DNA from: a virus
DNA: 64,000 bases
Direction: 5' to 3' (one strand)
Virus record (IMG/VR): IMGVR_UViG_3300028895_000881
Span: 1-64,000 of that record
A program made the position numbers and the translations under genes. This document shows, piece by piece, positions 7,708 through 16,831 of the stretch. The notes under the pieces were generated by a model. The model was not told the origin of the DNA. It saw only the letters and a list, made by a program, of their open reading frames with translations, and made no database searches. Within the stretch, counting starts at the first letter, position 1, and each line of letters opens with the position of its first letter.

Positions 7708-8271
7708 TCAGTACTTCAATCCTTTGCGGTACCGTGCGTTTTTCTTTTTCTGACGTGTGCGTCCTCGTCCTCGGTTACGGCCTTTCGCAAAAGGGCTTAG
7801 TGCGTGGCAGTTTGGGCAGATGAGTCGGACGTTTTCTTCAGCATTGTTGTCAGAGTTCCCGTCGATGTGGTCCATTTCCAGAGGAATCGGTTTTTTGAGC
7901 CAGTGAGTCCTTCCACAACCTTCGCAGCGATGAGAGCGTGTCCGCAAAAGGTATCGCCTCCGGGTTTGGTCTGAAGTAATCTCCGTCCATGCCTTACGTC
8001 CTAAATGTTCTCCTTGTTCGATGCAGGCATCGCAGTAAGTGTTGAAATGACCTACCGCGTATGCTCGCGTGGGTTCCCCACAGTTTTTGCAAGGTGGAGG
8101 GGCTTGGCCGGTGCCAACTCGGTTTCGAGTCTTCTTGGCCGCACAGGAGTGGTCGCAGTATTTGGCTTGCCGTTTTTCGTAAGGGAGTTCTTTCTGGCAG
8201 TACGCACACAGTTTGGGGTTTTGCTTGTAAGCGGCCTTCGCTGCTAAAGATCGTTTGGTGCTGCTATGCAC
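7708..8271 (-). CDS. HNH endonuclease inserted between tRNA-Thr genes
   Basis: CEGCG...PLEMDHIDGNSDNN..ENVRLICPNCH; probable GTG start at 8271, since the longer ORF call runs through two tRNAs. Confidence 0.85.
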   Translation of the reverse strand: MHSSTKRSLAAKAAYKQNPKLCAYCQKELPYEKRQAKYCDHSCAAKKTRNRVGTGQAPPPCKNCGEPTRAYAVGHFNTYCDACIEQGEHLGRKAWTEITSDQTRRRYLLRTRSHRCEGCGRTHWLKKPIPLEMDHIDGNSDNNAEENVRLICPNCHALSPFAKGRNRGRGRTRQKKKNARYRKGLKY

Positions 8272-8306
8272 GGAGTTAAAATAGCACGTCGCTTTGACTC
8301 GTGCCG

Positions 8307-8382
8307 TGGAGCCGCCGGGGGGACTCGAACCCCCTGCCTCTTGATTACGAATCAAGTGCACTGCCAGTTGTGCTTCAGCGGC
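8307..8382 (-). tRNA. tRNA-Thr(CGT)
   Basis: CTTGA-TTCGTAA-TCAAG anticodon arm, CCA end. Confidence 0.9.
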
Positions 8383-8426
8383 ATGGTAAAGGCTATCCAG
8401 GCATGTCTTTCCTTGAGTGAAGAGTT

Positions 8427-8502
8427 TGGAGCTGACGATAGGAGTCGAACCTACAACCCCCTGATTACAAATCAGGTGCTCTGCCAATTGAGCTACGCCA
8501 GC
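8427..8502 (-). tRNA. tRNA-Thr(TGT)
   Basis: CCTGA-TTTGTAA-TCAGG anticodon arm, CCA end. Confidence 0.9.
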
Positions 8503-8613
8503 TTGAGTGGCCAGCGTGGCCAGCGTGGCCAGGTCCGCGTTGAGCTCCCCTTCCGGGGTCCCCGGCGGGTGTTCTTCACTCTGTTAGAGGTCGGTCTACA
8601 CGCCGGGAAATGC

Positions 8614-8709
8614 TCAACACGAGGTCGTATCGCCCATAATGGGGCGTACGACGGCCACGACGACCATGGCGGTCGTTGTCGTGGTGAGTTCTGTCGTGGA
8701 GCGTTTCAT
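8614..8709 (-). CDS. thrL-like leader peptide MKRSTTELTTTTTAMVVVAVVRPIMGDTTSC
   Basis: 31 aa with 9 Thr and 5 Val; lies between a sigma70-like promoter and the first tRNA-Thr. Confidence 0.7.
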   Translation of the reverse strand: MKRSTTELTTTTTAMVVVAVVRPIMGDTTSC

Positions 8710-8755
8710 GGCGTGAGTTCCGAGTCGCCGGCCTGCCAAGGGAGGCGACAGAGTG

Positions 8756-8784
8756 GGTCTACTTTCCCTCTGACGAGAAGTCAA
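8756..8784 (-). promoter_or_regulatory. Sigma70-like promoter for the minus-strand tRNA operon
   Basis: TTGACT-17 nt-TAGACC. Confidence 0.6.
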
Positions 8785-8862
8785 GAGGACCCTTCAACTT
8801 TTTTGGCGTCGTCGCGCACGTCTTGTTGACACGAGGTGATAGCGACCCTATCCTCTTCATGA

Positions 8863-9099
8863 ATGGCCGACAAGAACATCAAGACCGGCATCGTCGAACT
8901 CGACGAGCTTCTCTCCGGAGAGGGTCGGTTGGACCTGTCTGTCTTCTCGGCCGGACCGGGCAAAACCACCTTGCGCGAGCAGATGATCAAAAAAGCTCTC
9001 GAGGGAGGTGCGGTCTACGTGGATTTCGACTTCGAGATGAAGCCGAAGTTTGACGAAGAAGCTCTCGGCGTTCCGCCGGACAAGCCCATCATGCCCTAG
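8863..9099 (+). CDS. Small hypothetical protein
   Basis: 78-aa ORF followed by a hairpin with an 11-bp base (9093-9140). Confidence 0.5.
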   Translation: MADKNIKTGIVELDELLSGEGRLDLSVFSAGPGKTTLREQMIKKALEGGAVYVDFDFEMKPKFDEEALGVPPDKPIMP

Positions 9100-9153
9100 C
9101 CCGGCTCGAGCGCGTGGTGCTCTCGGGTTCGGGCTAGGGCGGAAAGCCCAGGC

Positions 9154-9438
9154 ATGTCCCAACGAGCACTTCGTCGTCATCACCGCGATCGTATGATCGC
9201 CCGAGCCCGCCACGTCACCCGACGCTGGCACAACTCCTACGAGCAAGACTGGAACGATCCTCTTACTCGTCCCGACCACACCAAAGCGGACGAGCAAGCG
9301 ACTCGGATCCACGACCACCTCAAGGTCTGCTCCTGTTCCGGATGCGGCAACCCTCGACGTGGGGGTTGGGATGAGCCGCGTACTCGACAGGAGCTTCGAG
9401 CCGAGCTCGACCTTCAAGACCAGCTCGAAGAAATCTGA
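9154..9438 (+). CDS. Small basic protein with CSCSGCGNPRR motif
   Basis: 94-aa ORF, Arg-rich N-terminus, Cys cluster. Confidence 0.6.
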   Translation: MSQRALRRHHRDRMIARARHVTRRWHNSYEQDWNDPLTRPDHTKADEQATRIHDHLKVCSCSGCGNPRRGGWDEPRTRQELRAELDLQDQLEEI

Positions 9439-9447
9439 ATCACAGGG

Positions 9448-9476
9448 TTGACTTCTTCGTCAACGGCCCCTAGAAC
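9448..9476 (+). promoter_or_regulatory. Sigma70-like promoter for the Lys tRNA operon
   Basis: TTGACT-17 nt-TAGAAC; overlaps the palindrome TTGAC-N6-GTCAA. Confidence 0.6.
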
Positions 9477-9486
9477 GAGACGCATC

Positions 9487-9519
9487 ATGTTCTGCATGAA
9501 ACGCAAGTCCAAGCTTTAG
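9487..9519 (+). CDS. Lys-rich leader mini-ORF (MFC)MKRKSKL
   Basis: Directly after the promoter; codons AAA, AAG, AAG; followed by hairpin 9519-9553 and then tRNA-Lys. Confidence 0.5.
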   Translation: MFCMKRKSKL

Positions 9520-9572
9520 CCCGTGGGGATGGTTCACTCCGTCCTTCACGGGCGTCGTAGTGATACATCCTC

Positions 9573-9646
9573 GGGCCGGTAGCTCAGTCTGCGTAGAGCG
9601 AGGGACTCTTACCCCCTAGGCGTGAGTTCGAATCTCACCCGGCTCT
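9573..9646 (+). tRNA. tRNA-Lys(CTT), imperfect anticodon stem
   Basis: GGGCCGG/CCGGCTC acceptor, AGGGA-CTCTTAC-CCCCT, GTGAG-TTCGAAT-CTCAC; no encoded CCA. Confidence 0.75.
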
Positions 9647-9756
9647 CTTCAACGAGGATCGCAAACATGGTCGTGTAAAACAGACGGCCAGCGACTCCTC
9701 GGGCAGAGAAGGTGATCGCCAACGGGCAGCGTTGGAACGATGTCTCCTGCCAACCT

Positions 9757-9842
9757 GGGCCGAACGCACAGTCTGGTTGGTGCAGCGGACTTTTAATCCG
9801 CCGGACGAAAGTCCCTCGTGGGTTCAAATCCCACTCGGCTCT
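9757..9842 (+). tRNA. tRNA-Lys(TTT) with long variable arm
   Basis: GCGGA-CTTTTAA-TCCGC, variable arm GGAC-GAAA-GTCC, T arm GTGGG-TTCAAAT-CCCAC. Confidence 0.8.
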
Positions 9843-9844
9843 CT

Positions 9845-9935
9845 GAGAAACACAGCGCGTGGGCATCTCCTGCTAGCGGGGGTTCCGGTTCGACTCCGGA
9901 TGGGCTGTAGAGGATCGTACCCTCATGTGTTTCTC
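9845..9935 (+). ncRNA. Structured tRNA-mimic ncRNA candidate
   Basis: 10-bp closing stem GAGAAACACA/TGTGTTTCTC enclosing a canonical T arm TCCGG-TTCGACT-CCGGA and two more hairpins. Confidence 0.45.
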
Positions 9936-9939
9936 TCCT

Positions 9940-10013
9940 GGGCCCATAGCTCAACCTGGTAGAGCAGCAGACTCTTAATCTGACGGTTGAAGGTTCAATT
10001 CCTTCTGGGCTCA
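9940..10013 (+). tRNA. tRNA-Lys(CTT)
   Basis: GCAGA-CTCTTAA-TCTGA anticodon arm, normal D and T arms. Confidence 0.85.
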
Positions 10014-10036
10014 CTACCTCTCGGTAAAATAGACAC

Positions 10037-10456
10037 ATGGCACGATCACGACCACTACAGGAAGCCCACCAGATCGCAGAGGCATACTCCCGCGAGCTGG
10101 ATCGTCGTGCCCGCGAATCGAAGACGATGGACAGCCGCTTCAACTACGCGGTGCAAGTTCTTCACGAAGAGGGCACCTCGTTCTTCTACCGGAACGCTTT
10201 CACGGTGCGGTGGGGGATCTGGCACATCGTCATCCCCGAACACCACGACATCGCCGTCTACGCGAACGACGAAGTACAGGTCTTCATGTTCAAGATGGCC
10301 CCGGACGAAGTCGAGGAGATCGCGGACGTGTCCCAGCTCGGTATCGACGAAGCCACGCTCGAGTGGGGTCCGGACCCCTACGGCACGCTGAAACGCAAGG
10401 CCGAGGAGGACGCCGCACTCGAAGCGGAAGACCCCTCGGCCGACCCCAACCTTTAG
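10037..10456 (+). CDS. Hypothetical protein
   Basis: 139-aa ORF; TAAAAT box 6 nt upstream of ATG. Confidence 0.65.
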   Translation: MARSRPLQEAHQIAEAYSRELDRRARESKTMDSRFNYAVQVLHEEGTSFFYRNAFTVRWGIWHIVIPEHHDIAVYANDEVQVFMFKMAPDEVEEIADVSQLGIDEATLEWGPDPYGTLKRKAEEDAALEAEDPSADPNL

Positions 10457-10548
10457 GGCGGGTATAGCGTAGCTGGCCGAACGCACCGGACTTTTAATCC
10501 GGCGAAGAGAAATCCCCATCGTGGGTTCGAATCCCACCCCGCTCTCCA
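10456..10548 (+). tRNA. tRNA-Lys(TTT) with long variable region
   Basis: CCGGA-CTTTTAA-TCCGG, 18-nt variable region, GTGGG-TTCGAAT-CCCAC, CCA end. Confidence 0.8.
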
Positions 10549-10580: not shown

Positions 10581-11024
10581 ATGCAACGGAAAAAGTGCGG
10601 CACATGCAAACGGAGTCGCATGGTGAAGTTTTTCAACGCCAAGGCCGCAAGCCCTGACGGCCTCCAAAGCACGTGCCGCGATTGCAACCGTCGAAACGCC
10701 AAAGCGTACTACGAACGAAATCGAGACTCACACAAAAAGAAAATGGTCGCCTACGCAGCGAAATACAAAAGCCGCGTCGCCCGGCAAGTGTGGGACTACC
10801 TTCTGGAACACCCCTGTGTGGACTGCGGAGAAACCGACCCGGTGGTCTTGGACTTCGACCACGTTCGTGGCACAAAATTCAGACCCATCAGCAGTATGCT
10901 CGCCAACAAAATGTCCTGGAAACGCATTCAGGACGAAATCACCAAGTGTGAAGTACGGTGTGCTAACTGCCATCGCCGGAAGACCGCCAAGGATTTCAAC
11001 TGGCACGCCAGTTTCCGCGACTGA
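10581..11024 (+). CDS. HNH-like endonuclease
   Basis: KKCGTC...DGLQSTCRDC, PCVDCG...LDFDHV...KCEVRCANCHRRKT. Confidence 0.8.
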   Translation: MQRKKCGTCKRSRMVKFFNAKAASPDGLQSTCRDCNRRNAKAYYERNRDSHKKKMVAYAAKYKSRVARQVWDYLLEHPCVDCGETDPVVLDFDHVRGTKFRPISSMLANKMSWKRIQDEITKCEVRCANCHRRKTAKDFNWHASFRD

Positions 11025-11077
11025 TTCGCCCGAGTAGGCTCTCATTTTCTTTCCTATAGCCCTCCTTTTCCAGGACG

Positions 11078-11998
11078 ATGGCAGCGTTAGCACTAGATGG
11101 GGGAGGCGTCCGAGGTCTCATCACAGCCGCGTGGCTGGAGTATCTCGACGAGCACACCGACAAACCCCTGCTCGACTACTTCGACGTGGTTGCCGGCACC
11201 AGCGCCGGGAGCATCAACGCGATGGGCCTCGCGTTAGGACTCTCTGGCCGCGATGTTCGCGAGCTCTTCCAAGTGAACGCACCAGAGATCTTCCCATGGT
11301 GTCTTCCCCGGTGGGCCGACAAGGCTGCCCGGATCCCGAGTCAGGGTCTCTCCTCGCCCAAGTACGGCTCAGAACGTCTCGTCGATGCGATGCGCAACGT
11401 GTTTGGTGAGCGCCTCTTCGGTGACGCAAAGATCCGCTGCCTGGTGACCACGTACTCGATGACTGAATCTCGAGCACTGATCCTCGACAGCGCGAACCCG
11501 GACCATGCCGATCTCCCGATGTGGAAGGTCGTCGCAGCCTCCTCGGCCGCGCCGGTGTTCTTCCCGGCCATGTGCCTCAAAGTCGGGGGTGTCGATCATG
11601 TTGTCGTGGATGGAGGTGTCGCCATCAACGACCCGGCCCTCACGGCCAGCACCGCGCTTCGTGAAATGACGGGCAAGGATTTCACGAATCTGTTCCTGCT
11701 GAGCCTCGGTACCGGACACCCTGTTACCAAGGACAAGCTGTACGAGCTCAAGGGTGCGGGTCTGTGGGACTGGGGCATCGGCCTCGTGCACTTCCTTCTG
11801 ACGGCTCCGAGCGACCACACGGACTACGTGTGCCGCCGCCTTCACGGTGACAACTACCACCGTGTGCAGGTCCGAGTCCCCTACGATGAGTTCGACATCG
11901 ACGACGCTTCGAAGAAGAACCTCGAACGTCTCCTCCACACGGCAGCTTCGGCGTTCAGCGAGCTCGATCCGATCGTCGAAGCGCTGGAGTCCCTTTAG
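11078..11998 (+). CDS. Patatin-like phospholipase
   Basis: DGGGVRG oxyanion loop, GTSAG nucleophile motif, SSAAP, DGG. Confidence 0.92.
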   Translation: MAALALDGGGVRGLITAAWLEYLDEHTDKPLLDYFDVVAGTSAGSINAMGLALGLSGRDVRELFQVNAPEIFPWCLPRWADKAARIPSQGLSSPKYGSERLVDAMRNVFGERLFGDAKIRCLVTTYSMTESRALILDSANPDHADLPMWKVVAASSAAPVFFPAMCLKVGGVDHVVVDGGVAINDPALTASTALREMTGKDFTNLFLLSLGTGHPVTKDKLYELKGAGLWDWGIGLVHFLLTAPSDHTDYVCRRLHGDNYHRVQVRVPYDEFDIDDASKKNLERLLHTAASAFSELDPIVEALESL

Positions 11999-12080
11999 CC
12001 GCCTTCCGGGCATGACCGGCTTCCTCTATCCTTGTTTTTTGACGGAAGAGAAAATAGGTTGCGAGCAGCAAAAGGAGGGC

Positions 12081-12983
12081 ATGGGACGCCCTCGAAAACA
12101 ACTACCCGATGAGGAGATTGTAGCTCTTTACCAGGAAGGCCACTCCGAATCGTCTTTGGCACAACGATTCAGAACAAGTCGAAGCTCCATACATCGCCGT
12201 CTCGTTTCTGCGGGAGTCGACCCTCGCAACGCTGTTGAGACCACCGCTCTACGGACTCGGAAAACTTTCCCTGTTACGGAGAGGTTCCTCGAACTCGTGG
12301 ATGGCCTCCTTCTGGGGGATGCTTGGATTGAGGTATACGGCACTAGCGAAGGGCGTCTAGGGCTGGAGCAGACCTGTCATCACGAAGCATGGATCGAAGC
12401 GGTGGCGAAAGAGTTCGCTGGGCTAAACATCTCAACCAATCATAAATGCCGACGTGCCCGGAAAAAATCCGTGGTTTTAAGGACGCACAAATACATGCCT
12501 TTTACCGCGCAACGGCATCGGTGGTACCCAAAAGGTGAGAAGCGTGTTCCTGTTGATGTGCATCTCTCTCCTCGCTCTCTTGCTCACTGGTACTGGGGAG
12601 ACGGGGCTACGGTGAATGATGGGTATGGGATGCTTTTTCACACTGAGGGGTTCAACGAAGAGGATGTCGCACTGCTCCGAGCAAGACTGAAAAAAGTTTA
12701 CGGATGGGACACAACCCAACGGGAACGGCGCCCAGGCCAATTCACGATTGGCCTGTACCGACAAAAATATCGAGATGAGCTCGTGAAGTTGATCGAACCC
12801 TACTGTCCTTCATGTTTCCGATACAAAATCAAAACAAGAACCAGAGCGCCATCGAAAATTTCTGAAGTCGAGGCCGAGTTACGCACACTTAGATCTGAAG
12901 GGCTCACTCAGCGACAAATTTCTGAACACTTTCGAATGTCCCCAGGTTGGGGAGGATGGGCCTGCCGAAAACTCGGCATCTGA
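12081..12983 (+). CDS. Free-standing LAGLIDADG homing endonuclease with HTH motifs
   Basis: LVDGLLLGDA and LAHWYWGDG motifs; AAGGAGG SD before ATG 12081. Confidence 0.85.
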   Translation: MGRPRKQLPDEEIVALYQEGHSESSLAQRFRTSRSSIHRRLVSAGVDPRNAVETTALRTRKTFPVTERFLELVDGLLLGDAWIEVYGTSEGRLGLEQTCHHEAWIEAVAKEFAGLNISTNHKCRRARKKSVVLRTHKYMPFTAQRHRWYPKGEKRVPVDVHLSPRSLAHWYWGDGATVNDGYGMLFHTEGFNEEDVALLRARLKKVYGWDTTQRERRPGQFTIGLYRQKYRDELVKLIEPYCPSCFRYKIKTRTRAPSKISEVEAELRTLRSEGLTQRQISEHFRMSPGWGGWACRKLGI

Positions 12984-12994
12984 AAGGATAAACC

Positions 12995-13676
12995 ATGGAA
13001 ACGTTACTCGTTGAAATCAGGAGTGGGGAGGGCGGCGAAGATGCCAAACTCCTCGTACAAGAGCAATACCGTATTTACAGCCGGTATTGCTCTTTGGAGC
13101 GTCTTTGACCACGAACTACTCGAGGATCGCCCCGGCTTTTTGCTGATGCGCGTCACGGGTAGGAACGCCTCCCAAGCGTTCTGCCATGAGTCCGGTGGGC
13201 ACCGTTTTCAGCGCGTACCACCCAACGAAAAAAGAGGCCGGGTACACACCAGTACGGTGACGGTAGCCATTCTCGAGGAACCTTCAGAACACGAAGTTCG
13301 CATTGACCCTCGTGATCTTGAAGAGCAGTTCACTCGAGGATCGGGCAAAGGAGGCCAGCACCGGAACAAGACGGATACGTGCGTGATCCTAAAACACAAA
13401 CCGTCGGGCATTCAGGTGCGAGTAGACGGTGGCCGCAGCCAGGCAGACAACCGTCTCTCTGCGTTAGGCATTTTGAGAGCTCGCCTAAAAGCCGCAGGGA
13501 CAACCAAAAAAACCAAAGAGCGGAATGCCAAGCGACGTCGTCAGGTGGGCACCGGAATGAGGGGAGATAAAGTACGCACTATCGCCATGCAGCGCGACAC
13601 CGTCACCGACCACAACACAGGCAAAACAATGAGGGCCAAACATTACCTGCGAGGAAACCTCAGCGATCTTTGGTAA
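12995..13676 (+). CDS. Minimal class-I peptide chain release factor (RF1-like), expressed via +1 programmed frameshift at 13103-13109
   Basis: ORF1 METLLVEIRSGEGGEDA...ERL ends CTT-TGA-C; +1 frame carries HESGGHRFQRVPPNEKRGRVHTS and GSGKGGQHRNKTD (GGQ); about 226 aa, lacks domain 1. Confidence 0.88.
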
Positions 13677-13765
13677 CCTAGAGCACCCCATCAAGACTTT
13701 TCACTCTAGATGGGGTGCGCGTTTGCGCGTTCGTATCTTTGAGGTCACACTAGTGTTTCGGAGGT

Positions 13766-14053
13766 GTGACCGTGAACAAGACAAACCGATGGCTGACCTG
13801 GACCTTTGCAGCACTGACGGGAGCGATGGTTTTCCTTGGGGCTGGATTGACGTCCCTGGATGCCGCTAGCAGCCCCAATGAGCGAGCAGCTCAGGAGGCG
13901 GGACAATGGATGGATGATCTCGGGTCCGTGCGGTCGAGCGAGCTTGTCTACTCCGAAGATTTCGGACACCCCGTCTGGCGTGTTCGTGGAACTTCCACGA
14001 CAGTGATCATGGACGGCGAGTACGATCTGGTCGGTCTCGAATTTCACGACTGA
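13766..14053 (+). CDS. Small membrane-anchored or secreted protein
   Basis: N-terminal hydrophobic segment. Confidence 0.55.
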   Translation: MTVNKTNRWLTWTFAALTGAMVFLGAGLTSLDAASSPNERAAQEAGQWMDDLGSVRSSELVYSEDFGHPVWRVRGTSTTVIMDGEYDLVGLEFHD

Positions 14054-14718
14054 TCTTCGTCCTCGTCCTCGACAAGTTCACCTTCGACCGGGATGCCGAC
14101 CACGTCGATGACCTGCGCGAGCTCGGGCGGGATCTGAAGTACACGTCCCTTCGACTCGATGGCCTCGAGCGCCTTGCGCTCCTTGGCCGCCTCCGCGAGC
14201 TCGAAGATCTTCTGTGCGAGTTGGCCGAGATCGATCTGCGTGACCGTAGCGACCTGTTCCTTGAGCGCTTTGTTCTCCTGTTCGAGCTGCGTGATCCGAG
14301 CTTCCATCGCCGCAGCCAAAGCGTACTGCTGCTTTTCGACACGATGAACGTGCTCGTTCGTGTTGCGGATCTCCACCTTGTTCCTGCGGGCTCGTTCCAT
14401 GTACTCCGCAGTCAAAGTTTTGCCAGGGCCGGGACACGAAAGCTCGATGTTCGAGTTGATTCGTTTGCCGGCGTTGTCTTGGTAGCGCCACAACCGTTCA
14501 GGAGTTCCAACTGGAGCTTGCGGGTCTCCACGTCGAAGCTCGGTCACAAAACAGATCAAACAAGTTCTGGGACCAACGGCCCCATAGTGGCTCGACGGCA
14601 TGTTGAAAGAGTCTGTTCCTCCCCATTTATGTTCTCGGAACTCGAGCACTTCGTCGTCCTCGGACACGAGCTCGATGGGAGGCACCCTCCCGGGAAGGGT
14701 TTTAGGGCGGTCGGCCAC
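14044..14718 (-). CDS. Hypothetical coiled-coil protein
   Basis: 224 aa with heptad-like central region. Confidence 0.65.
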   Translation of the reverse strand: MADRPKTLPGRVPPIELVSEDDEVLEFREHKWGGTDSFNMPSSHYGAVGPRTCLICFVTELRRGDPQAPVGTPERLWRYQDNAGKRINSNIELSCPGPGKTLTAEYMERARRNKVEIRNTNEHVHRVEKQQYALAAAMEARITQLEQENKALKEQVATVTQIDLGQLAQKIFELAEAAKERKALEAIESKGRVLQIPPELAQVIDVVGIPVEGELVEDEDEDQS

Positions 14719-15599: not shown

Positions 15600-16442
15600 T
15601 TACAACAGGTCGAAGATGCCACCTTCGGGCTCCGAAGCATCTTCGGCTACCTCACCGTCACGGACCCAGTGGGCCTTGCGTTTCTGGAAGTAGTCGAACG
15701 CCTTCTGCTCCACGTCGAACCCGAGGAAGTTCCGGCCGAGGTTGAACGCCGCCTCGCCGCAGGAGCCGCTGCCGGCGAAGGGGTCAAGCACAAGCTCTCC
15801 TTCTTCACTCGACTGCTGAATCAGGAGCTCGAGGAGCTCGACCGGCTTCTCCGTGGGATAGGCGTTCTTGCGCTTGATCCAAGGAACCTGAAGCACACCA
15901 CCGGACTCGTCATCGTCGATCGGGGTGGGCTGCACGTTGCGGACGCTCCGGTTCTTCGGAGCCTTCCTCTTCCCCTTGCGCCCCACCAGGATCATCTCCC
16001 ACTGACTCCGGAACGGGTAGCCCATCCCTGGAGTGCCCGGCGTGTTCGTGTGTGTCAAGACATGCCCGCAGTTCTCGCAGGGGATCTCGACACGCTTGCC
16101 GACCTTCCACCAGATGAGCGACTTGCGGACCTCGTAGCCTGCCTTGCGCATCAAGGGTTTGATGGCTTCAGCCGTCTCTTCGTCGCACATCACGTAGATG
16201 TCTGAGCCACGTTTCATGACGCGGTAGCACTCTTCGAAGAAAGGCTCGAAGTACTCGTTCTGGAGCGTCGGGAACCAGGCGTTGCTCGACTGCTTCGAGT
16301 TCTTGAGGCGCGTCGTCGTCCCCATGTTGCGCCACTTCTCGAGGGACGCATACGCAGGATCGGTCACAACGAGATCGACGGATTTGTCCTCGAGCTCGGC
16401 GAGACCCTTGAGCGCGTCGATCAGCTTGATCTCGTGGCTCAC
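15600..16442 (-). CDS. N6A/N4C DNA methyltransferase (beta class)
   Basis: VDLVVTDPAY (motif IV variant), YPTEKP, VLDPFAGSGS; probable GTG start at 16442. Confidence 0.88.
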   Translation of the reverse strand: MSHEIKLIDALKGLAELEDKSVDLVVTDPAYASLEKWRNMGTTTRLKNSKQSSNAWFPTLQNEYFEPFFEECYRVMKRGSDIYVMCDEETAEAIKPLMRKAGYEVRKSLIWWKVGKRVEIPCENCGHVLTHTNTPGTPGMGYPFRSQWEMILVGRKGKRKAPKNRSVRNVQPTPIDDDESGGVLQVPWIKRKNAYPTEKPVELLELLIQQSSEEGELVLDPFAGSGSCGEAAFNLGRNFLGFDVEQKAFDYFQKRKAHWVRDGEVAEDASEPEGGIFDLL

Positions 16443-16831
16443 TTGTCGTCGAGCTCCTCGAGGTACTCTTCGACAAGGACCTCGAGCTTGTCGCACTGGT
16501 CTTCAGTGAAGCGTCCGATGTGGGCCTCATCCTCGGACATCTCCATGGCCTCCTGCATCCACCCGTAGGCTTCAGAGCGACTCATGTGCTTGTCCTTCCA
16601 AAGCTGGTCGAACGCATCGTGAGCACGCATCCGAGCTTTCTTGGTCTTCTTGTCCGCCGGGATACCGAGCGGTTTCCCAGACTTCTTGTGGGCACCGTGC
16701 GTGGCCTTGCACTTCGGGTAGTTCGAGCAGCCGTAGAAGAGGCCGTACTTGCTATCCCGCAACACCATCGTGCTTCCGCATTCAGGGCACGGATGGTCGA
16801 GCACGGTCCCCAGAGGAAGTACATCATTCAT
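16439..16831 (-). CDS. Topoisomerase-type C4 zinc-ribbon protein (DUF3268-like)
   Basis: CPECGSTMVLRDSKYGLFYGCSNYPKC...RMRAHDAFDQLWK...HIGRF. Confidence 0.75.
   Translation of the reverse strand: MNDVLPLGTVLDHPCPECGSTMVLRDSKYGLFYGCSNYPKCKATHGAHKKSGKPLGIPADKKTKKARMRAHDAFDQLWKDKHMSRSEAYGWMQEAMEMSEDEAHIGRFTEDQCDKLEVLVEEYLEELDDK

Follow-up and report, generated by a model that had tools for sequence, protein, structure and literature searches.

A putative prfB-like +1 frameshift gate in a phage gene for an RF1-type release factor lacking domain 1

The +1 frameshift of prfB, the gene for bacterial release factor 2 (RF2), is the textbook example of how a gene can gauge its own product by recoding. 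RF2 carries the tripeptide S-P-F, and release factor 1 (RF1) follows the rule P-x-T at the corresponding place. In this paper, we describe a locus at positions 12,995 to 13,676 of a 64,000-nucleotide (nt) stretch of viral DNA (positions 1 to 64,000 of the record IMGVR_UViG_3300028895_000881; hereafter the window), in which a cassette of the prfB kind very probably interrupts a gene for a class-I release factor (RF) that descends from RF1 and has no domain 1. The prfB frameshift has the consensus CTT_TGA_C with a Shine-Dalgarno (SD) sequence upstream (PMC3711429, PMC12421855), and lies near the start of the open reading frame (ORF) (PMC12421855). According to the available portions of that source, the gate stop is TGA in 98.6% and TAG in none of 8,164 motif-bearing genomes, and no credible programmed frameshift was found in prfA, the RF1 gene (PMC12421855). 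All the CUU-stop entries of RECODE are prfB as well, so far as the available text of PMC10274946 goes.

Three other described systems come close to the locus. Mimivirus R726 and Megavirus mg280 encode class-I RFs whose genes contain CUU UAG C and CUU UAA C frameshift motifs in addition to a readthrough stop (PMC3521657), and the Mimivirus factor shows a weak context at the gate stops and a strong one at the true stop (Jeudy et al., PMC3521657). PrfH, also called RFH, is an RF without domain 1 that is paired with RtcB (PMC6514570). Finally, recoded phages encode class-I RFs, namely RF1 in the TGA-recoded Jade and RF2 in the TAG-recoded Lak and Agate (bioRxiv 10.1101/2021.08.26.457843). The word 'frameshift' occurs 0 times in the available text of the huge-phage paper PMC7162821, and the accessible parts of the literature searched (including PMC7824862 and PMC13037316), whose supplementary tables may list such genes, gave us no account of a frameshift in a factor of a phage or of the RF1 type.

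The locus comprises the following elements.

12982..12987, plus strand: SD-like AAAGGA, 7 nt 5' of the ORF0 start codon (from sequence reading)
12995..13105, plus strand: ORF0, 37 sense codons in frame 0, with ATG at 12995 (12995..13108 with its stop; 37 amino acids)
13096..13099, plus strand: internal SD-like GGAG, with the spacer CGT (13100-13102) leaving 3 nt to the slip codon
13103..13109, plus strand: slip site CTT TGA C, with CTT at 13103-13105 (P site), the in-frame TGA at 13106-13108 and C at 13109
13107..13676, plus strand: +1 frame, 189 codons and TAA, open from GAC at 13107 to TAA at 13674-13676
13218..13226, plus strand: codons of P75-P76-N77, where RF1 has the PxT tripeptide that reads the stop codon
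13350..13358, plus strand: codons of G119-G120-Q121, the catalytic GGQ, in the joined reading
13683..13718, plus strand: hairpin just 3' of the TAA of the gene, -25.4 kcal/mol, z -3.36, equalled by 0 of 200 shuffles

Judged from its sequence, the locus is one gene for a predicted class-I RF of RF1 descent with domains 2, 3 and 4 and without domain 1, in which a single +1 step at CTT-T gives a joined translation of 226 residues. A preliminary description of the window had placed the true start at 12995 behind AAAGGA, and had seen the geometry of the prfB gate (GGAG, CGT, CTT, TGA, C) after 37 codons; reading of the sequence bears out the start, and the gate is found as described at 13096-13109. 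As in prfB, CUU directly precedes an in-frame stop that is followed by C and so has the weak context UGA-C, an SD-like GGAG stands 3 nt upstream of the slip codon, and the +1 frame encodes the body of a class-I RF. Folding of the RNA 3' of the slip site showed nothing notable (z -1.66).

The two frames fit together as parts of one protein. Taken alone, the 37-residue ORF0 peptide matches Pfam PCRF over positions 102-132 with E 8.4e-7, the +1 piece matches PCRF positions 155-194 and the RF-1 domain (E 5e-26), and the joined protein gives one continuous PCRF match over positions 102-194 followed by the RF-1 domain, with 76.1 and 90.8 bits, respectively. Against the NCBIfam models, the +1 piece by itself scores 180.6 bits with prfA, and the joined protein scores 212 bits with RF1 (prfA), 131 with RF2 (prfB), 68 with PrfH and 36 with ArfB, all below the curated cut-offs. 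As the RF1 model scores highest and is matched over positions 106-333 of its 347 only, the factor is of RF1 descent and without domain 1, and the RF1-like scaffold and the missing domain of the preliminary description are thereby confirmed. The scores fall well short of those of full-length RF1 (212.3 bits for NF001859 with a cut-off of 400, and 204.5 for TIGR00019 with a cut-off of 423.25), of RF2 (131.4 for TIGR00020 with a cut-off of 370; SPF is absent and the loop reads VPPNEKR) and of PrfH (67.7 for TIGR03072 with a cut-off of 166.65), and the ArfB model is matched by residues 99-134 only (36.2 bits with a cut-off of 100) in a protein that has a codon-recognition domain. With bacterial RF1 the factor shares the PCRF and RF-1 domains, GGQ, the decoding stretch Q...P-x-[T]...H-T-S and the fold; it differs from it by the lack of domain 1, by scores below the equivalog cut-offs, by PPN in place of P-x-T in the window gene and by an altered switch-loop stretch. 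The stretch opposite the RF1 tripeptide reads VPPNEKRGRVHTS, in which P75-P76-N77 stands opposite PVT of Thermotoga maritima RF1, and the stretch aligned with the RF1 switch-loop region is RTIAMQRDTVTDH, versus RTYNFPQNRVTDH in T. maritima RF1.

The closest solved structure is that of T. maritima RF1 (E 5e-46), of which residues 88-315 are covered by residues 4-224 of the joined protein, and the join L37|D38 aligns at its conserved G-W-N (around residue 121), in domain 2. ORF0 encodes the first strand and the long helix of domain 2, including the helix tip GEGGEDA, and the +1 frame encodes the remainder of domain 2, domain 3 with GGQ, and domain 4; a product without ORF0 would thus be short of elements that belong integrally to domain 2. 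The joined protein was modelled with AlphaFold on a 58-row alignment in which GGQ is invariant, with a mean predicted local distance difference test (pLDDT) score of 89.3 and a predicted template-modelling (TM) score of 0.81. In this model ORF0 forms a strand (2-10) and a helix (15-34) with pLDDT of 94-98, the join falls in the turn between that helix and strand 38-45, and the whole superposes best on free RF1 (1rq0_A; TM score 0.84, root-mean-square deviation 2.9 A), the matches that rank top by E-value being RF1 chains. The modelling shows that the predicted products of the two frames are consecutive parts of one RF fold, and that the joined product models as a compact RF1. The earlier suggestion that the full protein would be made only if termination at the internal UGA fails is supported. 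The position of the gate at codon 37 in domain 2 and the descent from RF1 instead of RF2 set the gene apart from prfB, whose N-terminal region is absent here, so far as the available descriptions of prfB allow the comparison; because the gate position is not homologous to that of prfB, the cassette probably arose independently.

Erroneous single frameshifts are common in contigs assembled from metagenomes, and an assembly indel or a decaying gene in two pieces has to be considered, but we find such an artefact hardly credible. The letters of the site are identical in the contigs of four runs, with 0 other letters and 0 gaps, so that the check for a sequencing indel, proposed along with the preliminary description, turned up none; two of these runs (X1 and X6) may be the source of the record, the other two (X8 and X12) are not so marked, and the stretch is present in runs from several studies. 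Moreover, the same +1 step is needed at the same codon in nearly all the related loci described below, where the flanking signals are conserved too, and both halves of the gene are under protein-level conservation, with GGQ in 166 of the 167 relatives. A search of the phage collection at the DNA level gave no match. Recoding of TGA throughout the genome of the window phage was also considered and is ruled out, as table 11 gives greedy ORFs a coverage of 0.94 or 0.908 (two counts) and more of these ORFs end in TGA than in any other stop (35 of 55 in the one count, 32 of 54 in the other). In this the factor differs from the RFs of the recoded phages, which it resembles as a class-I RF encoded by a large tRNA-rich phage: those are presented as members of a code-change module, with no mention of a frameshift in the available text, whereas the window phage reads as standard code.

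To see the gene in its family, relatives were collected in two ways. A word-based protein search returned 2,762 relatives, the best 120 of which are 158-228 amino acids long with 63-100% identity; the N-terminal motif is in none of these best 120 database proteins; the +1 piece alone had been annotated by the gene callers. With HMMER, a full scan counted 248 cluster representatives with E-values of at most 1e-30. We drew 244 loci from collections of phages, viral contigs and metagenomes and located the gene pieces in each, with a clear +1 piece in 201 loci (window included) and the N-terminal piece in 186, which collapsed to 167 distinct proteins; the remaining 15 of the 201 are contig ends or distant RF-domain genes. 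The 167 proteins fall into the following classes.

+1 frameshift: 146 of 167, with the gate TGA in 103, TAG in 36 and TAA in 7
In-frame stop at the same place: 14 of 167, TGA in 13 and TAG in 1
Uninterrupted: 6 of 167, no stop
Unclear: 1 of 167

Thus the motif is conserved in homologues, most of which need the same +1 shift as the window gene, a recurrence beyond what chance would give. The UGA gate of the preliminary description holds for the window but not as a UGA-specific feature of the family, and this spread of gate stops, which weakens a reading purely in terms of an inactivated host RF2, is unlike that of prfB, where TAG was found in none of the 8,164 motifs (available text of PMC12421855). 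The other parts of the cassette are conserved across many divergent genes, as they are in prfB. Among the 146 frameshift loci, the slip codon is CTT in 145 and TTT in one, although CTT makes up only 345 of 2,319 (14.9%) of the other leucine codons in the same genes; the gate stands at codon 37 in 143, the base 3' of the gate stop is C in 117, and GGAGG or GGAG stands 3 nt upstream in 72 and 28 loci, respectively (together 100). The true terminal stops of these genes are TAA in 81, TGA in 45 and TAG in 20, followed by C in 16 and by T in 72; the gate stop, mostly followed by C, is therefore in a weak context, whereas the real end of the gene is in a strong one. A separate start does not account for the +1 piece, as in 61 of 146 loci the open +1 stretch upstream of the site contains no ATG, GTG or TTG; this stretch is at most 10 codons long in 29 loci. 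A few loci deviate in detail. The gate is at codon 53 in two of them (L013 and L014) and at codon 25 in a third (L023), and the gene pieces of L242 are two frames apart, which may reflect a second shift or an assembly error. A 485-kb uncultured phage (L001, LR745208.1) has the same 37-codon ORF0 and CTT TGA C; its decoding loop, however, is shorter by four residues and has no tripeptide at all.

In a FastTree phylogeny of 161 short factors and 10 cellular RF1 (six rows of odd length or type being excluded), the short factors form one clade apart from the cellular proteins with a support of 99. Nested among the frameshift rows is a supported clade of nine (L011, L015, L016, L018, L021, L024, L026, L028 and L030) in which an in-frame TGA replaces a conserved tryptophan. 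The context is GGT TGA AAG or similar, without an SD, at about codon 36, that is, one codon from the frameshift site of the relatives. For four AT-rich phages of this clade, recoding of TGA throughout the genome is ruled out, since coverage under table 11 and table 4 is about equal (0.774/0.810, 0.829/0.819, 0.787/0.802 and 0.786/0.825), and TGA ends 16 to 46 ORFs in each; as these four phages use the standard code, the in-frame TGA is specific to the gene. The GC-rich member G005 cannot be judged by this comparison. Three of the four AT-rich phages carry a transfer RNA (tRNA) with the anticodon CTA together with copies of tRNA-Trp.

The nearest viral parallel to this family, so far as the available text of PMC3521657 shows, is found in the Mimivirus and Megavirus factors, where internal stops within CUU-stop-C motifs also gate the RF of a virus, where the contrast of a weak gate context with a strong true stop recurs as in the 146 genes here, and where a readthrough stop corresponds to the in-frame TGA clade. 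However, those factors are of the eRF1/aRF1 type, belong to amoeba viruses and involve two recoding events per gene, while the present factor is a bacterial-type RF1 without domain 1, occurs in phages and bacteria and, with the exception of one sampled locus, involves a single event per gene.

Copies in bacteria include 13 loci of Myxococcota-lineage genomes with CTT-TGA or CTT-TAG gates and mostly PPN, among them one on the complete chromosome of Archangium gephyra SDU49 (L248). In Archangium the factor gene has ordinary chromosomal neighbours (for glycosyltransferases, DUF1569, a beta-propeller protein and an MFS transporter), none of them of phage type, and no neighbour besides the factor gene is common to the 13 loci. 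In addition, Ornithinimicrobium murale DSM 22056 (L271) and an Aeromicrobium isolate (L265) have CTT TGA C at codons 48-51. A 72-kb contig filed as a Gemmatimonadota metagenome-assembled genome (L245) encodes a factor very close to that of the window (alignment score 814) with the same cassette, and may be phage DNA that was binned together with a bacterial genome.

The locus contains every element of the prfB cassette, each of them under selection, and is economically read as working by the same mechanism. Ribosomes would start at the ATG at 12995 and read 37 codons, which would bring CUU into the P site and UGA-C into the A site; there, either an RF would end a 37-residue dead-end peptide, or the peptidyl-tRNA-Leu would slip from CUU to UUU, aided by pairing of the GGAG three bases upstream with 16S ribosomal RNA, and decoding would resume at GAC and continue in the +1 frame to the TAA at 13674. 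As such a slip competes with termination, the yield would have to depend on the speed at which the gate stop is recognized, by RF2 in the case of the window gene. With a weak stop at the gate, more full-length factor would be made if the infected cell terminates slowly, which for the window phage means at UGA and hence with RF2, and the gene would act as a sensor of termination capacity that provides an extra terminator without domain 1. We consider it highly probable that a programmed frameshift produces one fused protein here. For the purpose of the device we see an even chance that it is termination-dependent feedback rather than the setting of a fixed ratio, and the role of a sensor of termination capacity supplying an extra domain-1-less terminator seems to us about equally likely to be right or wrong. 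Taken as a whole and weighted to the mechanism, the explanation that combines a frameshift gene with a sensing purpose is in our judgement probable.

Several points weigh against this explanation. The frameshifting itself is deduced from sequence elements, and no RNA run containing the stretch was found. The internal SD of the window is GGAG only, a simple match detects no SD in 20 of the 146 frameshift loci, and the six uninterrupted relatives indicate that the gate can be lost. The sample is biased, since the search patterns were derived from the same protein family and the best 80 loci per scan were taken. As for the sensing, one would not expect a factor of the RF1 type to read UGA, and self-regulation of the prfB kind therefore does not follow; with TGA as the commonest stop of the ORFs of the phage itself, a knock-out of RF2 is an unattractive scenario. 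The gate stop is also labile: among 141 frameshift rows, the tree requires at least 30 changes of it. Such free drift speaks against tuning of the device to a single host factor, and with TGA, TAG and TAA all serving as gates, a generic slow-stop device fits as well as a specific sensor. Well-supported branches alone require 7 to 8 of these changes, and two loci (L255 and L256) are identical over the 15 bases upstream and then have TGA in one and TAG in the other. The choice of stop depends weakly on base composition: weak stops are preferred and TAA is avoided at the gate even in AT-rich loci (5 of the 43 loci with a GC content below 0.5, 7 of 146 overall). Flanking ORFs end in TGA in 171 of 330 cases at TGA-gated and 42 of 116 cases at TAG-gated loci, a comparison confounded by relatedness and crude ORF calling.

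The decoding loop does not follow the gate. PPN is present in the window gene as initially noted, but is not special to it, for among the best 120 proteins about 56 have PPN and about 57 PPT, with two each of PPS and PPG. No tracking of the gate stop by the tripeptide is seen: the PPT:PPN ratio is about 2:1 under both TGA and TAG gates (in the set of 167 relatives), and near relatives alternate between T, N and S whichever stop gates them; the 20 nearest TAG/TGA pairs have T, N and S on either side, as found with imperfect motif patterns. A test of tripeptide against gate stop on independent pairs showed no trend with only five well-supported pairs, which makes the missing covariation of loop and gate weak evidence.

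These observations bear on what the factor might do. The gate would close a negative feedback like that of prfB if the short factor had broadened specificity and read its own gate stop, UGA here and UAG or UAA in relatives. Both published precedents, prfB and the Mimivirus and Megavirus factors, gate an RF gene by a stop that the factor reads, as their available descriptions have it; the 30 or more gate changes without a matching change of the tripeptide are what free choice among readable stops would produce; and the decoding parts, with PP[T/N/S]EKRGR and the helix tip GGxDA, are unlike those of cellular RF1. Nevertheless, we regard self-regulation, which is established for prfB, as rather unlikely here, as the scaffold is clearly that of RF1 (212 vs 131 bits), most relatives have PPT in keeping with the RF1 rule, and the missing covariation was seen in few pairs. 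The tolerance of all three stops and the flipping of gates between close relatives could also be taken as signs of an attenuator, a cassette that would set a low constant yield of a factor harmful in excess without any meaningful response to RF levels; overproduced RF2, and more mildly RF1, indeed lowers the fitness of B. subtilis, according to the available text of PMC12421855. A weak ribosome-binding site would be a far simpler route to the same yield, however, and a multi-part cassette has been selected, as judged by the near-constant CTT, the SD at 3 nt, the C after the gate stop and the avoidance of TAA. As a slip that competes with termination inherently responds to RF activity, we think a fixed-ratio device improbable.

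Rescue of ribosomes independent of a stop codon, in the manner of ArfB or PrfH and induced when termination or ribosomes are compromised, is in our view very unlikely. It would account for the missing domain 1, as in PrfH (PMC6514570, available text), for the altered switch-loop region (RTIAMQRDTVTDH vs RTYNFPQNRVTDH of T. maritima RF1) and for synthesis coupled to failing termination, and the factor further resembles PrfH, as far as the available account of PrfH goes, in keeping a domain of the codon-recognition type and in a sporadic, horizontally spread distribution. It differs from PrfH, though, in its score of less than half the cut-off, in the lack of a conserved partner gene among the 13 Myxococcota loci, and in that no RtcB gene was found in the 83-kb record, itself a fragment. 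In addition, the match to ArfB is confined to the surroundings of GGQ, the codon-reading elements (Q, the tripeptide and H-T-S) are retained, and the alignment with T. maritima RF1 shows no basic C-terminal tail of the ArfB kind.

The source record, from a very large uncultured phage, is a virus fragment of 83,068 bases, about 16% complete, and contains one gene with an RF-1 domain. Behind the stable hairpin 3' of the gene come another, small GC hairpin and a run rich in T, which together look like a terminator, and a terminator-like site is predicted at 13713-13732; no sigma-70-like promoter was found in 11000-14200. The ORF directly upstream (11847-12983, plus strand, with TGA at 12981-12983) encodes a homing endonuclease of the LAGLIDADG type with a helix-turn-helix at its N-terminus (Pfam E 2.3e-26); as it overlaps the end of a gene for a patatin-like phospholipase (11078-11998, plus strand, E 2.8e-27), its real start is probably further in. 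An N6/N4 DNA methylase (15600-16496, minus strand, E 1.1e-32) also flanks the locus. The window has 16 tRNA genes at 6630-10548, mostly adjacent pairs with the same anticodon (Met, Ile and Asp) plus four Thr and four Lys; two of the tRNA-Lys(TTT) genes are unusually long (87 and 93 nt), and 2.4 kb separate the end of the tRNA-Lys block from the factor gene downstream. Across the family, 68 of the 167 loci have a tRNA gene inside the fetched flanks.

New here are the flipping of the gate stop among TGA, TAG and TAA without tracking by the loop, the nested in-frame TGA clade, and the gated copies in bacteria. A more far-reaching reading, which we put forward tentatively and think more doubtful than probable by a good measure, is that the gene is a self-contained module of termination insurance, spread among huge phages, Myxococcota and some actinobacteria, whose product reads beyond the stops of RF1 (all three stops, or at least UAG and UGA) and is induced by the very failure it repairs. 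Such a module would explain why the gate drifts among the three stops with the decoding loop unchanged, and why most lineages use a +1 slip and one nested clade plain readthrough of UGA. Whatever its purpose, the CUU-stop device, which is confined to RF2 in the available text of the literature searched, is seen here in an RF1-type factor at a non-homologous place, where it gates more than 100 genes in huge phages and bacterial chromosomes with UAG and UAA besides UGA. The question is experimentally approachable, as the gene is present in the cultured A. gephyra SDU49, O. murale DSM 22056 and the Aeromicrobium isolate. If the factor reads its own gate, it would be a natural bacterial-type RF with broadened specificity, of relevance to genetic-code engineering; and if the gate senses termination capacity, phages would follow and supplement a step of host translation to which infection biology has paid little attention.

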